Origin: a virus
Lineage: Duplodnaviria; Caudoviricetes
Direction: 5' to 3' (one strand)
DNA: 64,000 bases
IMG/VR virus record: IMGVR_UViG_3300013382_000004
Part shown: piece after piece, positions 53,439 through 64,000 of the stretch
How positions within the stretch are numbered: position 1 is the stretch's first letter
Layout: each line of letters starts with the position of its first letter
Notes under the pieces: model-generated
Databases searched by the model: none
What the model was told of the DNA's origin: nothing
The model's input: only the letters and a program-made list of their open reading frames with translations
Program-made: the position numbers and the translations under genes

Positions 53439-54146
53439 ATGACTTTTGGCTACATTCGAGTAAGCACTGACCAGCAGACTGTTGAAAACCAGCGTTTTGA
53501 AATCAACCAATATTGTGAAAAGCATGGAATGAAAATTGATGGTTGGATTGAAGAAACAATTTCTGGTACAAAGAATCCCGAAAAGCGCAAATTGGGCAAA
53601 CTTCTTAAAAAGGTACAAAGCGGAGACATTATTATTTGTTCTGAAATTTCTCGACTTGGTAGAAGTCTTTATATGATTATGGATATTCTTTCCTTATGTA
53701 TGGAAAAGGGTTGTCAAGTGAGAACAATTAAAGATGGATTTGTATTGGGTGATGATATCCAGAGCAAAGTATTAGCGTTTGCTTTTGGACTTTCTGCTGA
53801 AATTGAGCGCAATCTTATCAGCCAGCGAACCAAAGAAGCTCTTGCCATGAGAAAAGCGAGTGGTGTAAAACTCGGTAGACCCAAAGGTTCGTTAGGAGAA
53901 AGCACCAAACTTACTCAATACGAAGAAACCATTAAGACTTTAATTGTTGAACAAGATAATTGCTATGCAGATGTAGCAAAACTTTTTCATGTCAATCGTT
54001 CCACAATGAAACGATTCTGTGATAAGAGAGGTTATTTCAGACCCAGCATTGTAGAAAAGAACCAGCGCAAAGCAGAGAGATTAGAACGCGAACGCATTGA
54101 GAAAGAATATAAAGACAAGCTTCTCGAATTTGACGATGAAGATTAA
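53439..54146 (+). CDS. Serine recombinase (resolvase/invertase, Mpi-like)
   Basis: YIRVST (catalytic Ser), EISRLGRS, ERNLISQRTKEAL, LGRPKG, C-terminal HTH. Confidence 0.92.
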   Translation: MTFGYIRVSTDQQTVENQRFEINQYCEKHGMKIDGWIEETISGTKNPEKRKLGKLLKKVQSGDIIICSEISRLGRSLYMIMDILSLCMEKGCQVRTIKDGFVLGDDIQSKVLAFAFGLSAEIERNLISQRTKEALAMRKASGVKLGRPKGSLGESTKLTQYEETIKTLIVEQDNCYADVAKLFHVNRSTMKRFCDKRGYFRPSIVEKNQRKAERLERERIEKEYKDKLLEFDDED

Positions 54147-54161
54147 ATAAAATTAACTTAC

Positions 54162-54199
54162 AAGAGGGAGGGTTAAACACTCTCCCTCTTTTCTTTTTT
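54162..54199. terminator. Terminator between the convergent recombinase and endolysin genes
   Basis: AAGAGGGAG/CTCCCTCTT stem with a T tract. Confidence 0.7.
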
Positions 54200-54211
54200 A
54201 TTTACTATGGA

Positions 54212-55255
54212 TTAAATCTTTTTCAAATAAGCAAGACTAATCCAGCCTCTACCATCAGCAAGTCTACCCCAAGCAGTACCAGAAACTTTCTTTTCTTCGA
54301 CAATTTTAACAATTGTATTATAAGCTACTGCACCATTCTTATTGTAAGAAGTACCAGCACCTGTTCTAATATTTACACCTGAAGTGGCAGTAATCTTGCC
54401 CTAATAAGCTTTAAAAGTATTAGTTGCAGAAGAAACCTTCTTAATATAAGTCAGACTAACCCAACCGCTACCGTCGGCCAATTTTCCCCAACCATTATCT
54501 TCAAGAATAATAGAGACGCCTTCACCCTTTTTAAGAGTCCCAGCAATAGAAGCTGAGACAGAGGGACCCTTACGAATCCTTAATACAGAAGCAGTAACAG
54601 TGCCAGAATAAGATACAGTTGTTTCAGTATTTGTGGGTGTAGATGGAGTTACTTTTTTACCCATCTTAGCAGCAACATCTTGCCTAAAAGTATCCATGCT
54701 TTTACCAAAACGAGGAAACCAGTTACGAGGGTCAGCATGATTAGATGCAATACCTCTCTGATGTCCTTCATAATGTCCGATAATCACGCCATCTTTTAAC
54801 GGGTCAAAATTATATAATTGACAAATATAAGCAGCAAATTCAACTGCTTCCTTATATACTTTATTGAAATAATTAGCATCTGTCAAGGCATCTTCACAAA
54901 GTTCTACTGATATGTGAGTATTATTTGCACTACCTTTATTTCCTTTACCACAATGCCACCCTTTATAGTTCCAAGGTAATGTTTGAACAGTAGCAACCTC
55001 GCCATTAGCAAGTTTGCCAATAAAAGCATGAACACAAACATTTGTTCTAGGATTGTTCCAAGCTGTGCCACCGTTGTTTCTGCCTAACTATGAAATTAAA
55101 GTGCTATAATTACTATTATTAGTAGCTGGTTGAACATATCTTTTCAAATTAGGGTTATTGGCACCAGTGCTGTGTATCATCAAACCCTTTGGAGTAATTT
55201 TTACCCCCTGTTTATAACATCTATTCTATGTAAAAAGACATTTTAGTAATTTCAT
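54212..55255 (-). CDS. Endolysin: amidase_2 + two SH3b domains (347 aa)
   Basis: MIHSTGANNP, VHAFIG, WHCG, ELCED, SNHADP, two GWVSL/GWISL SH3 repeats. Three in-frame TAGs. Confidence 0.9.
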
Positions 55256-55276
55256 TTCTAACTCCTTTTAAATCTT

Positions 55277-55639
55277 TTACTCCTGAATAATACTTTGAAT
55301 AATAGGAGTAATTGCTTCAATACCATATTTATCAGCTAACTGATTTATAAAATTCAAACTTATTTTCATTCTATTTTCCGCACGCTCTTTAAAACAATAA
55401 CAAGCATTATATACAGCAACTTCACCCCAAGACAATCCAACAACGGTTGCAAAGGAAGCTATATCTGCTCCAAAGGGGCCAAAGAAAATACATAACACAA
55501 ACAAGATTGTTAAACTTATAGTAGCAATCCAAGAAATAATTCCCCACTTCTTCATGGTTGGAGTTTTCTCCATGGCTCGCTTAAATCTTTCAAATAATGA
55601 AATTCTTTGTTTTCCCATAATTATTCTCCTTCCTTTCAT
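55277..55639 (-). CDS. Holin (two TM helices)
   Basis: Hydrophobic segments, KERAENRMKI, directly upstream of the endolysin. Confidence 0.7.
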   Translation of the reverse strand: MKGRRIIMGKQRISLFERFKRAMEKTPTMKKWGIISWIATISLTILFVLCIFFGPFGADIASFATVVGLSWGEVAVYNACYCFKERAENRMKISLNFINQLADKYGIEAITPIIQSIIQE

Positions 55640-55690
55640 AAGTGTGTAATATTTACTATATTTATCTCACAATAACATCTAAATGCATCA

Positions 55691-61381: not shown

Positions 61382-62056
61382 TTACTACAGAGTAAAAATA
61401 TCTATTTCGTTAACAGAAAATGTACCTGTTGTTATATAACTATCTAATTTGCTTGCTCCATAATTGAAGTTTAATCCTAATATAAGTTCTCGCGTAGAAA
61501 TATTAATGGTGGGATATGGAACAATGCTCATACTATAATATATAACATCAGATACTCCATTCATGATAGCAATATAAGGAAAATTAGAAAAACTTCCAAC
61601 ATTATTTGAAATTTCGCTTATTGTTGAATTAAATACTAATTTGTTGCCATAAGAAGAATTTGCTTTTGGTATCCTACTAGTATATAAATAAATAGCCGAC
61701 ATTTTGGTTAAATCTATATATTCAGATTTTTTATTATAATTCGGTATTGTCCGCTTAACAGCCCATGCTACTGCATTATCAGAGCTACGATAAGATTTAT
61801 AACAAGTCATTGTTATAGACGATTGAATCCTATTTTCCTTTAAAATAACCGAAGGACTATAACTTCCACTGACACCAAAAATACTTTTCCGACTAACGAT
61901 GTTAGATGGAACAAGATTATTATCTCCATTTACCGTAACCGAGGAATAACCGTCATAAGATAATGATGGCGAATAGGTTTGAGTAGAAGCTTTTGGAGTA
62001 ATTATGGTTGTTGTTAAATTAGCCGAACCACCACTGCCAAATACTTGTATTGACAC
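61382..62056 (-). CDS. Tail-fibre-like cassette g
   Basis: GTG-SIQV, YDGYSSVTVNGDNNL..IVS[CGG]KSIFG. Confidence 0.7.
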
Positions 62057-62077
62057 ATATTGGCAATTAGAAGCAAC

Positions 62078-62722
62078 TTATTTTAAATAACAGAAAGCTG
62101 CGCAAACAGATGAGGATTCTGTTACATTTATAGAGCCTGTACTTATATACTAAAAAATATCCTAATTATTACTGGGACCACTAAAGACGAACTTGGTATA
62201 ATCATTGTTCAGAAAACCAAAACGAGAGAAGTTACGATAATACATTTTTTCTGTTGAATAATACACACAACCGCTATCATAATCCCATTTCCGTAAATTA
62301 ATATTAATCGGATTCCAAGCTGTTAAATAAAGGCTCATCTTATTACCAGTTGTTCCATATTCACCTAACTATTCAAAATAGAAATAAACAGCAAAAAGAC
62401 CCTCATTAACTTGCTATGTGTTTAAATCTGATGGCATGGTGTAATAAAAATAACTATTTCGGGATTCTATTGCAGTTTCTATAAAATATGTGGTGTATGT
62501 TTTAATCTAAATTGATTTCCGCTCATAGTTTCCAGCAACATTGAATATAGATACTCCAGATTTAATATTTTCGCTAACTAAATTGTTATCGCCATTAACT
62601 ATTACAGAACTCAAAGCATCATAACCAGATTGAGGATAAATTGTTTGTTGACTTGAAGATGGCGTAACAGTTCTTGACTATAATGTTGGAGAGGCTCCTC
62701 CTGATTGAATGTATATAGACAA
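62078..62722 (-). CDS. Tail-fibre-like cassette h
   Basis: TTG-SIYI, QSGYDALSSVIVNGDNNL..IKSGVSIF. Confidence 0.7.
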
Positions 62723-62744
62723 TAGTTCGGCAATTTTGAACAAC

Positions 62745-63320
62745 TTATGTTTCTAAATAAGTAGCAGAAATATGACAGCCCATACCGTTAGGATAGCTTA
62801 TAGAAGTTGTTGTATTTGTAATAGCTATATAAAAATATTTCCCAACATAATTGAATCTAGCATAGTTATAACCAATCTAAAAATTTTGTCCTCCTTGACT
62901 AAGAATTACATCACAGCAAACATTGGGAATAAAAATTCCAACATTGTATTGACTTGCTCCATCCAAAAAGAACCAGCATAAACTTAATAGCTAGTCAAAA
63001 GCGTAAATTCCTGCTCCATTGTTTACACTATTTAAAGGAATGTAAACTATTGTTCCACTTGACTTGTAATACTAGTCTCGAATTTGTTGTTCTGACCAAC
63101 CGTAAACTCTGTTGGAAGAATTAAGCTATCTTACTTCTATTTCGGAAATTTCAAAATTTTTAGTCTTTGCTCTTGCTCCGCCTACGGCAAAATCTCCATA
63201 TCCGTCATAGGTTGGACTAATATTACTTACATTAAAAACTCTTGTGCTATATCCTGCGTTAATAGTCCCAAGTGAGATTAAATTTGGTGAGCTTGCACAT
63301 GATTTTATTTCAATAGACAA
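62745..63320 (-). CDS. Tail-fibre-like cassette i
   Basis: TTG-SIEI, PTYDGY, open to TAA with TAG=Gln. Confidence 0.6.
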
Positions 63321-63342
63321 AATATTTGGCGTTTATGTGCAA

Positions 63343-63918
63343 TTAATTAAAAACATAATATCTAAACTCTAATGTATAAGGAGAGATAAATGCTGTGTCC
63401 CAATTTAGGGTGTCTAAATTTGTTGTGGTAACTTTACCATCATGAAAAATTATTTCTATTTTATGGTCATATACAACAATGCTTGCGTTTCCTAAAAGTA
63501 CAGATTTATCTTCAAAATTAAAATATACAGTTGGTTGTTTATTATTATAGTTAACAACCATTTGAGAAATATAACTTCCTTTGTCAGTAGCAAAGAACCG
63601 CCCTATATCTGATTGTGTATATGTATTACGAGGAGTCATTGGACTGCCTTTAGCCCGATAAAAAGACCACGCCCAAATTGTGTCTGGATTAAAATCGTAA
63701 AATATATTGTCAAAAATCACAGAAGTAGAGGTTGATGATGTATTAGTATATTTCACAAAAGTAGAGCCAGTAGGTTTTTTTGTAGAAACTGATACTGTTT
63801 TCATTCCATCATAACCAGTAGTAGGGCTAATTATAGCAGATTGTCCCCATTCAAGTTCAATAGACCTTTGCTCTTGCAAATTAGCACTTCCACCTGAATT
63901 TAGTACAGAGACACTCAA
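63343..63918 (-). CDS. Tail-fibre-like cassette j (in-frame ATG at 63951 with GGGGGT SD is possible)
   Basis: TTG-SVSV, GGSANLQ, TGYDGMKTVSV. Confidence 0.7.
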   Translation of the reverse strand: MSVSVLNSGGSANLQEQRSIELEWGQSAIISPTTGYDGMKTVSVSTKKPTGSTFVKYTNTSSTSTSVIFDNIFYDFNPDTIWAWSFYRAKGSPMTPRNTYTQSDIGRFFATDKGSYISQMVVNYNNKQPTVYFNFEDKSVLLGNASIVVYDHKIEIIFHDGKVTTTNLDTLNWDTAFISPYTLEFRYYVFN

Positions 63919-64000
63919 AATTTTGGGCGTTTTCCTGCAACGAAAACGCATCTATTTACCCCCAATCATGCCCTATTTCTGCAAGATTTCTTGCATAATA

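Follow-up and report, generated by a model that had tools for sequence, protein, structure and literature searches.

Tail-fibre inversion switches such as Gin of phage Mu and Cin of phage P1 are textbook systems, and the classical Hin/Gin-type sites are dyad-symmetric 26-mers that work with a Fis-dependent enhancer. Min of the plasmid prophage p15B is a serine invertase with six mix sites and represents a multiple-inversion system (PMC6109161). The Rin shufflon of Bifidobacterium prophages relies on a tyrosine recombinase and 11-bp sites, and carries five C-terminal tips of 95–100 amino acids (aa) on a constant part of 168 aa (Mavrich et al. 2018, PMC6109161). Rci of the R64 shufflon is also a tyrosine recombinase (PMC11850598), and Mpi of Bacteroides fragilis inverts promoter segments at 13 loci scattered over the chromosome (PMC4747536). 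The locus analyzed here occupies positions 53,439 to 64,000 of a 64,000-nucleotide (nt) stretch of Caudoviricetes DNA (IMG/VR record IMGVR_UViG_3300013382_000004), referred to below as the window. It comprises a gene for a small serine recombinase, ten short sites, and nine tail-fibre-like genes (cassettes a–c and e–j), and probably represents a phage-encoded multiple-inversion system for receptor-binding tail proteins with leader-driven expression. The analysis supports the initial annotation in part; its reading of the array as a serine-recombinase multi-site cassette switch of tail-fibre-like genes is borne out.

Like Min, Gin, and Cin, the locus combines a small serine recombinase of a phage with sites in both orientations, putatively silent tail-fibre cassettes, and a single expression site (PMC6109161). 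Those systems swap 3' segments, each joined in frame to a long 5' part that stays constant, whereas here whole genes stand behind a leader of 9–25 codons, and no long constant 5' fibre part fused in frame was found. The recombinase belongs to the Mpi family and not to the Hin/Gin family, scoring above the NF009949 cutoff and matching Gin at just 2.8e-14. Gin and Hin sites are dyad-symmetric, whereas only the left arm is conserved here; the pairing of a Hin/Gin-family invertase with dyad-symmetric 26-bp sites is therefore absent. With Rin the locus shares the features of a shufflon of (here putative) receptor-binding proteins in gut phages, short asymmetric sites before promoterless cassettes, and arrangements that vary among genomes and reads, but a serine recombinase and whole-gene cassettes take the place of a tyrosine recombinase and tips. 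Mpi is of the same NCBIfam equivalog family and is likewise one enzyme for many sites; it flips chromosomal promoters, whereas the enzyme described here is encoded by a phage next to coding cassettes at a single locus. As in the R64 shufflon (Rci, pilV), there are multiple asymmetric sites, arrangements explained by inversions only, and cassettes that would specify binding specificity, although R64 swaps C-terminal pilV segments instead of whole genes. The R64 segments are individually flanked by inverted sites and are not ordered in two nested stacks as here.

Phage host-range shufflons, including multi-site ones with a serine (Min) or tyrosine (Rin) enzyme, are thus already known. What would be new are whole genes with their own starts, a crossover inside a leader mini-open reading frame (mini-ORF), asymmetric 16-mers, an Mpi-family enzyme, and a nested two-stack geometry together with a large shared cassette pool. 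A literature search found no published account of this system. Closely related huge phages appear to share a pool of at least 54 cassette families, about ten per genome, and the expression problem is apparently solved by translational coupling from a leader mini-ORF across the recombination site. Confirmation of the system would indicate how jumbo gut phages that are uncultivated and have reassigned a stop codon keep up with hosts whose surfaces vary. It would also make available a small multi-site serine recombinase system that works by inversion only on a 16-bp site, a possible genetic tool.

Crossover sites and rearranged junctions

Ten sites were found at the locus, four on the plus strand and six on the minus strand, as in a multiple-inversion system, which has three or more sites in both orientations. 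The fixed GTTGY-N7-YGCC geometry noted earlier before each cassette was confirmed, the sites being exact or 1–2 bases off and usually abutting the preceding stop codon (taaGTTG). The exact pattern GTTGYN7YGCC occurs seven times in the 64 kb against 0.53 expected matches, a number reached in none of 100 shuffles, and six of these matches precede cassettes. Four sites are variants with 1–2 deviating bases: site b (GAAGC..), site e (..GCG), site i (ATTGC..), and the site at 57748 (GATGC..). The logo of 31 distinct left halves is (taa)GTTGY-N4-AA-N-YGCC, and the only conserved letter 3' of GCC is an A at +2. Apart from the leader copy, the sites lack dyad symmetry centred on GC or CC. The tenth site (57748), initially described as having no cassette behind it, is not empty, since it leads to a 360-aa DUF6273 gene with its own AAGGAG ribosome-binding site.

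The window is contained in a contig of 213,491 nt (L001; identity over 13,999 nt; window position equals 70198 minus L001 position). Nine related contigs were collected by an exact-protein match of the 107-aa ORF of the locus, and eleven further contigs of 120–220 kb, with recombinases 97–99% identical, via a recombinase scan. Cassette order was compared among these relatives, as had been proposed earlier, and in about 20 loci identical left halves were found joined to different right halves, the switch always lying inside GCC. The left half consists of the 3' end of a cassette and the 16-mer; one of them, tattattcttaaGTTGCACTCTTTCGCC, has four partners, and the right half GACCTAATTGAGCG has five in the related loci. 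The same leader is joined to seven partners in related genomes, in agreement with the earlier view that the upstream side of cassette j is the expression locus. Two contigs from two samples of one study (L002 and L004) are 99.3%–100% identical and differ by one moved cassette: L004 has it immediately after the leader, whereas in L002 it stands in the far stack in inverted orientation. The blocks of identity break off 0–2 nt from the final C of GCC.

The alternative that this is a static array of paralogues, in which strain differences arise by homologous recombination or gene conversion through the shared N-terminal module (N-module), is scarcely credible. Several strains do coexist in the runs, and the shared module of about 200 nt could support homologous exchange. 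The break points, however, lie 0–2 nt from GCC, upstream of the N-module and not within it, the changes of orientation keep a strict two-stack rule, and the invertase gene is always adjacent.

Junctions at the GC of the sites were also sought in public sequencing runs (Logan contigs of four runs of one 2016 study). Six junctions absent from the window were found in the assembled contigs, all of them at sites. Three connect sites on opposite strands (site c with site i, site 10 with site j, and an a-like cassette placed beside f), and the other three connect co-oriented sites. The letters common to both junction partners are CGCC, GCCCA, and GCCAAATA; since their overlap is GCC, the exchange takes place within GCC. 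The symmetric GC proposed as the crossover dinucleotide stands insofar as it is included in GCC, but a palindromic GC and CC fit the sequences equally well. Many of the contigs have an end exactly at a site, which is what branching of the assembly graph would produce, and one Logan contig (L010) corresponds exactly to window 57736–63928, the segment between site 10 and site j. In run X5, a depth of 24.9 for the leader-to-e junction and of 14.3 for a contig that ends at site j together come close to the depth of the flank (37), suggesting two coexisting states in this sample. In run X7, a leader-to-site-10 junction was present at full flank depth. Alternative arrangements with junctions at sites thus occur both among near-identical genomes and within samples, and switching within a clone is likely.

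Two-stack architecture and recombinase

All loci contain two convergent stacks of sites and share one order: leader, co-oriented cassettes, central block, opposite-oriented cassettes, boundary site, holin, lysin, recombinase. Since the sites of the two stacks point in opposite ways, inversion between inverted sites flips the centre and preserves this pattern. From the arrangements we infer that two successive inversions transfer one cassette between the stacks and leave the others undisturbed, which reproduces the difference between L002 and L004. Inversion alone would suffice for every arrangement observed, and none appears to need recombination between direct sites.

The initial annotation had allowed both inversion and excision or reordering. 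Inversion is supported, whereas excision and reordering are not and appear unnecessary given the two convergent stacks found everywhere. An integron-like or otherwise excisive route, in which cassette circles would be re-inserted at the leader via direct sites, a palindromic GC core permitting, was considered because some contigs skip or go back between direct sites (62058>63323, 63322>61361, and 60797>63911) and the number of cassettes differs among genomes. This route is highly improbable: judging from the arrangements, each such junction could equally be made by two successive inversions, and up to 10 co-oriented sites coexist stably in one related locus (L003, with its 10 co-oriented cassettes). 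Moreover, neither an integron integrase nor an attC-like structure was found at the locus, the 16-mers lacking attC-like imperfect palindromes, and the recombinase is of the invertase family. The integron-like part of the earlier interpretation is therefore not supported.

The recombinase matches Pfam Resolvase (2.9e-35), and its earlier description as an Mpi-like invertase was confirmed by NCBIfam NF009949 (master DNA invertase Mpi family), with 298.9 bits against a cutoff of 272 over residues 1–198 of 235. Among solved structures, the Gin-type DNA invertase 4m6f matches best (2.8e-14). The catalytic serine motif Y-x-R-V-S of small serine recombinases is present, GYIRVSTDQQ aligning with GYVRVSTNDQ of Gin 4m6f. 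The distance of about 1.8 kb from the array also proved correct, the gene ending 1.77 kb from the first site, and the gene lies beside the array in the same place in all related loci.

Sister systems were found next to recombinases of the same family. In one contig of another uncultivated phage (L026), a recombinase with 50% identity adjoins 12 asymmetric sites GAACGGTTTAAAGATACAGTGGGG, six forward and six reverse in the order +++---+++---. This array (6600–10600) lies after a gene for a 2032-aa tail protein and before the recombinase; its sites encode NGLKIQWG, with which the tips begin, and these tips, C-terminal segments of the tail protein of 62–98 aa ending in AIGY, are swapped in frame. 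In design it appears to be a classical tip shufflon with in-frame exchange, served by an enzyme of the same recombinase family. The same type of site occurs in L023 (3240–4211) and L024 (9262–9970), and the sister recombinases are 50%–59% identical. The three sister arrays thus have a different site placed inside the coding sequence and in-frame tips, whereas the array of the window has whole-gene cassettes.

Constant adjacency and the sister systems suggest that the recombinase at 53439–54146 acts on the sites. Another enzyme, encoded elsewhere in the phage or by the host (e.g., a tyrosine recombinase such as Rci or Rin), could act on them instead, with the serine recombinase employed otherwise, and the asymmetric one-arm site indeed recalls sfx of Rci. 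We regard this as highly improbable, because a serine recombinase is adjacent in all loci and its 50%-identical relative adjoins its own 12-site array with a different asymmetric site. In the part of the 213-kb genome that was searched, the window, no tyrosine recombinase was found next to the array, the serine recombinase being the only one at the locus.

The proposed mechanism is as follows. The Mpi-family recombinase would exchange DNA between asymmetric (taa)GTTGY-N4-AA-N-YGCC sites, inside GCC. One stack is co-oriented with a fixed leader (63926–64000 and beyond), and the other with a boundary site next to the lysis genes; the DUF6273 gene, a 145-aa ORF, a 107-aa gene, and the innermost cassette lie in between. 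Each inversion would pair one site per stack and flip everything between them, so that the cassette behind the chosen site of the opposite stack would end up behind the leader. The cassettes would be complete genes of about 180–230 aa with their own NTG starts and no ribosome-binding site. Translation would begin at the Shine-Dalgarno (SD) sequence and ATG of the leader and then enter the cassette in frame; alternatively, leader translation would stop on or beside the cassette start codon and re-initiate there.

Cassette genes and proposed leader-driven expression

ORFs of at least 150 codons cover 30 kb of the window under genetic code table 11 and 56 kb when TAG is read as Gln. The phage of the window is thus recoded, with TAG reassigned to Gln. 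With this code, the nine paralogous ORFs with a common N-terminus and divergent C-termini were recovered as described earlier, all intact and 176–224 aa in length. Three of them (a, b, c) face right and six (e–j) face left, converging on 57.8–60.2 kb. The N-module common to all nine is about 65 aa long (MSIQV..GGS.NL..T.TP...Q...P..YDG.S.V.V..D.NL...NI.S..SIFGV.G), and the proteins diverge beyond it. The cassette pool comprises 54 families at 70% identity among 21 loci, with 9–11 or more cassettes per genome.

Searches of Pfam and PHROGs gave no match for any cassette. A homologue search with cassette g returned just 11 close relatives, none of them a named protein, and its AlphaFold2 (AF2) model, with a predicted local distance difference test (pLDDT) score of 77, contains a confident beta-rich C-terminal domain. 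Compared with the PDB, the model had no Foldseek match at E ≤ 0.001 and no VIA-align match at Z ≥ 5. Predicted viral structures in BFVD named 'Tail protein' matched at E values of 2e-6 to 7e-4, and the ESM Atlas gave weak leads only (0.85–0.87), including one 'putative Tail protein'. A profile of the N-module matched more than 10,000 representative proteins at E ≤ 0.001, with tandem copies of up to 35 per protein; the repeat pattern is ..KT.TP...Q.I.P..GYDGLS.V.V.. / GD.NL...NIK.GV.IFGV.G, and no Pfam family covers the repeat in these proteins. In one example, a protein with nine copies and ending in GDSNLVAENIKSGVSIFG is encoded behind a tape-measure gene and a gene for a 1260-aa protein, i.e., in a tail module. 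The N-module looks like one unit of a very common, unnamed phage fibre repeat. By genomic context, the best reading of the cassettes is that of receptor-binding tail proteins, in which the conserved N-module presumably docks on the tail and the variable C-terminal domain binds the receptor.

The cassettes lack SD sequences, as the initial annotation had stated, and only j has GGGGG-N7-ATG upstream. The leader reads GGGGG-N7-ATG CGT TTT CGT TGC AGG AAA ACG CC up to the junction, and the crossover site lies inside this mini-ORF. Over its last ~130 nt the leader is nearly invariant in nine loci, with variable sequence farther upstream. Two TAG codons come after another in-frame ATG, located upstream at 63996. 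Among 76 distinct cassette 5' ends, the first codon is TTG in 43, ATG in 17, GTG in 11, ATT in 3, and ATA in 2, whereas just 13% of the internal Leu, Val, Ile, and Met codons are NTG; this excess indicates that the first codon is selected as a start codon.

The distance from GCC to the start codon varies as had been reported, being 5–8 nt in the window and 5–11 nt in relatives, and the spacers set the cassettes in all three frames. The earlier statement that a constant in-frame fusion cannot explain all cassettes is thus correct. Of 52 distinct contexts, 34 are compatible with expression by fusion or coupling when read in the real leader frame, against 18 and 22 in the control frames (Fisher p ~0.002, a rough value, since the 52 contexts are not phylogenetically independent). 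The compatible contexts comprise 12 in-frame fusions, 11 cases with the stop abutting the start (TAA-TTG, TGA-TTG), and 11 overlaps (TTGA, GTGA, ATGA, TGATG). Stop-start coupled contexts alone number 22, against 5 and 12 in the control frames. In one cassette family, the spacer is 7 nt and in frame in L001 and 6 nt with TTGA in L013 and L014. From these contexts we infer that leader translation delivers ribosomes to the cassette start by fusion or by termination and re-initiation.

Alternatively, inversion could select a set of genes and not one. The leader-side stack would then be one operon in which each cassette is re-initiated after the stop of the previous one; inversion would alter which cassettes are in the sense orientation and their order (dosage), and virions would carry mixed receptor-binding proteins. 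Stop codons that abut the sites 21–27 nt before the next start, start codons on all cassettes, and the lack of any terminator-like site between co-oriented cassettes on the leader strand in the terminator scan are consistent with an operon, as is the finding that one third of the cassettes misfit the leader frame and yet are conserved in several genomes. On the other hand, the stop-start geometry is enriched specifically in the leader frame, suggesting selection at the leader position, and re-initiation over 21–27 nt without an SD sequence is usually inefficient. On balance, the operon model is rather unlikely, and leader-driven expression of a selected cassette is preferred.

In the leader RNA (L001 6185–6272, corresponding to window 63926–64013, minus strand), a 14-bp stem was predicted in which the anti-SD CCUC(U/C) pairs with the GGGGG SD. 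A second predicted hairpin, GCGUUUUC/GAAAACGC, holds the site (-32.1 kcal/mol, z -2.67). Among relatives, a U-to-C change in the anti-SD (CCUCU/CCUCC) turns a G-U pair into G-C. The modelled leader stem and the upstream TAG codons may form a code-dependent translational gate. The two TAGs after the upstream ATG suggest that full expression may need the state in which TAG is read as Gln. Two in-frame TAGs in the extended leader, together with TAG in the cassettes, would confine expression to the recoded late phase. We tentatively propose, as plausible but still short of probable, that the site is part of a translational coupling device. In it, an anti-SD-masked mini-ORF with two upstream TAGs would allow translation of any SD-less receptor-binding-protein gene with an NTG start that inversion has placed behind it, by fusion or by TAA-TTG/TTGA/ATGA re-initiation, only after the TAG-to-Gln switch. 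This device would be a viral whole-gene expression site served by nested two-stack inversion and a population-wide pool of at least 54 families.

Several findings weigh against a recombinase-driven switch of receptor-binding genes behind the leader. The sites are asymmetric and their right arm is not conserved, unlike the dyad-symmetric hix and gix sites of classical serine invertases. The link between the recombinase and the sites consists of adjacency and sister systems. The new junctions come from assembled metagenome contigs that hold several strains and not from raw reads of a clonal stock, so a strain mixture and ongoing switching are not cleanly separable. The modelled C-terminal domain of the cassettes has no solved-fold match at Z ≥ 5, and receptor binding is deduced only indirectly. 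Finally, 18 of the 52 contexts do not fit fusion or coupling, being in frame +2 or in frame 0 with no TGA, and two of nine leader junctions in assemblies (L004 and L012) are of this non-fitting kind. Such contexts could possibly be served by extra leader starts, slippage on GTTTTC, or re-initiation within an operon, or could belong to silent cassettes. Possible extra starts in the leader are a TTG at L001 6233 for frame +2 and the TTG of the site itself for frame 0.

Central block, flanks, and minor features

The features of the locus are listed in the table. Fibre-like genes lie upstream of the array, and a holin-like gene, an amidase_2/SH3 endolysin gene, and the recombinase gene downstream. 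Long ORFs of the window are nearly all on the minus strand. The INPHARED phage collection contained no near match to the region.

Features of the cassette locus (positions refer to the window unless marked L001)
Feature	Position	Strand	Remarks
Small serine recombinase, Mpi family	53439–54146	+	235 aa, no in-frame TAG
Site a, outermost of the recombinase-side stack (GTTGTCAAAATACGCC)	55913–55928	+	beside holin/lysin flank; public-run depth drops here
Cassette a	55935–56465	+	176 aa, TTG start, 6-nt spacer, TTGA overlap
Variant site b (GAAGCATTTTAATGCC)	56471–56486	+	same variant in L002, L004, L007, and L020
Cassette b	56493–57167	+	224 aa, GTG start; N-module repeat unit duplicated
Site c (GTTGCACTCTTTCGCC)	57168–57183	+	left half joined to 4 right halves in relatives; junction with site i in X5
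Cassette c	57192–57749	+	185 aa, GTG start, 8-nt spacer
Site 10 (GATGCTTTTAAATGCC), central-block entry	57748–57763	+	joined to leader in L007 and in X7 (depth 18.4)
Inverted 18-nt repeat of the stretch directly before the leader (TTTAATATTAATGGGAGA)	57793–57810	-	exact copy
DUF6273 gene	57877–58959	+	360 aa, own ribosome site; Pfam DUF6273 6.3e-13; phrog_37900 2.1e-55
Central-block ORF, 145 aa	59206–59643	+	phrog_29409 1e-25
Central-block gene, 107 aa	59874–60197	-	own ribosome site; always after innermost e-type cassette
Cassette e	60226–60789	-	187 aa, TTG start, 6-nt spacer, TTGA overlap
Site e (GTTGCACCCAATTGCG)	60796–60811	-	one C fewer than relatives
Cassette f	60816–61358	-	first codon ATA, 7-nt spacer, in frame with leader
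Site f (GTTGTAAATAAATGCC)	61366–61381	-	junction with site i in X5, shared letters GCCAAATA
Cassette g	61382–62056	-	224 aa, GTG start, 5-nt spacer; C-terminal domain modelled as beta-sandwich
Site g (GTTGCTTCTAATTGCC)	62062–62077	-	exact-motif scan, public-run contigs
Cassette h	62078–62722	-	TTG start at 62722, 6-nt spacer
Site h (GTTGTTCAAAATTGCC)	62729–62744	-	exact-motif scan
Cassette i	62745–63320	-	191 aa, TTG start, 7-nt spacer, in frame with leader
Site i (ATTGCACATAAACGCC)	63328–63343	-	variant site, public-run junctions
Cassette j	63343–63918	-	now at expression site, fused in frame to leader
Expression-site crossover site j (GTTGCAGGAAAACGCC)	63926–63941	-	inside leader mini-ORF and hairpin GCGTTTTC/GAAAACGC
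Leader	63942–64000, continuing past window end (L001 6140–6200)	-	SD GGGGG, ATG 63951 (MRFRCRKTP)

The central block has two distinct ends, one formed by site 10, the DUF6273 gene, and the 145-aa ORF, and the other by the innermost e-type cassette and the 107-aa gene. In the L012 lineage, a 109-aa gene and a cassette-like gene replace the content of the site-10 end. The N-terminus of the DUF6273 protein resembles that of the 107-aa protein (BLASTP E 0.005), and a pattern scan of IMG/VR found no relative of the DUF6273 protein. A hairpin with a T-run, CCAGAAAGGCTTAAGACTTCTGGGTTTTTT, lies at 59845–59876 (minus strand), overlapping the stop of the 107-aa gene; it was not listed by the terminator scan and is likely the terminator of the leader-side operon. 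In three related contigs, the central block contains a gene for a 556-aa reverse transcriptase (Pfam RVT_1), which is not present in the window (L002 10904–12574, L004 10904–12574, and L006 4770–6440). This insertion is probably a group II intron.

The 18-nt sequence TTTAATATTAATGGGAGA is located at L001 6177–6194, just past the end of the window, and its inverted copy lies some 30 nt into the central block and is directed outward through site 10. Its core CCCATTAATAT is kept in the divergent L012–L020 lineage. The repeat may act as a promoter or SD element or may be a relic.

The 16-mer was also considered as a promoter or terminator and rejected as such, since sigma-70 and terminator scans gave results at shuffle level and the junctions show crossover sites. 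A lone exact match of the motif, GTTGTCAACTAATGCC, was found at 17281–17296 (minus strand) inside a 1805-aa ORF (15274–20691), about 0.5 chance matches being expected per window; no rearrangement was seen at this position. A pseudo-site, CTTGCAGAAATAGGGC, at L001 6214–6229 (window 63969–63984, minus strand) shares 11 of 16 letters with the leader site GTTGCAGGAAAACGCC, which follows about 40 nt downstream, and belongs to the palindrome TGCAAGAAATCTTGCA. This match may have arisen by chance or may mark an accessory site for binding.

In the N-modules of the cassettes (window 55935–63918 and L001–L021), 38 of 44 CGG codons fall in columns with Gly as the commonest residue, for example, S-[CGG]-YDG and VF-[CGG]-AG. 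The AGA, AGG, CGT, CGA, and CGC codons of the same N-modules are found in Gly-majority columns in 0 of 63 cases. The pattern fits CGG being read as Gly in this phage.

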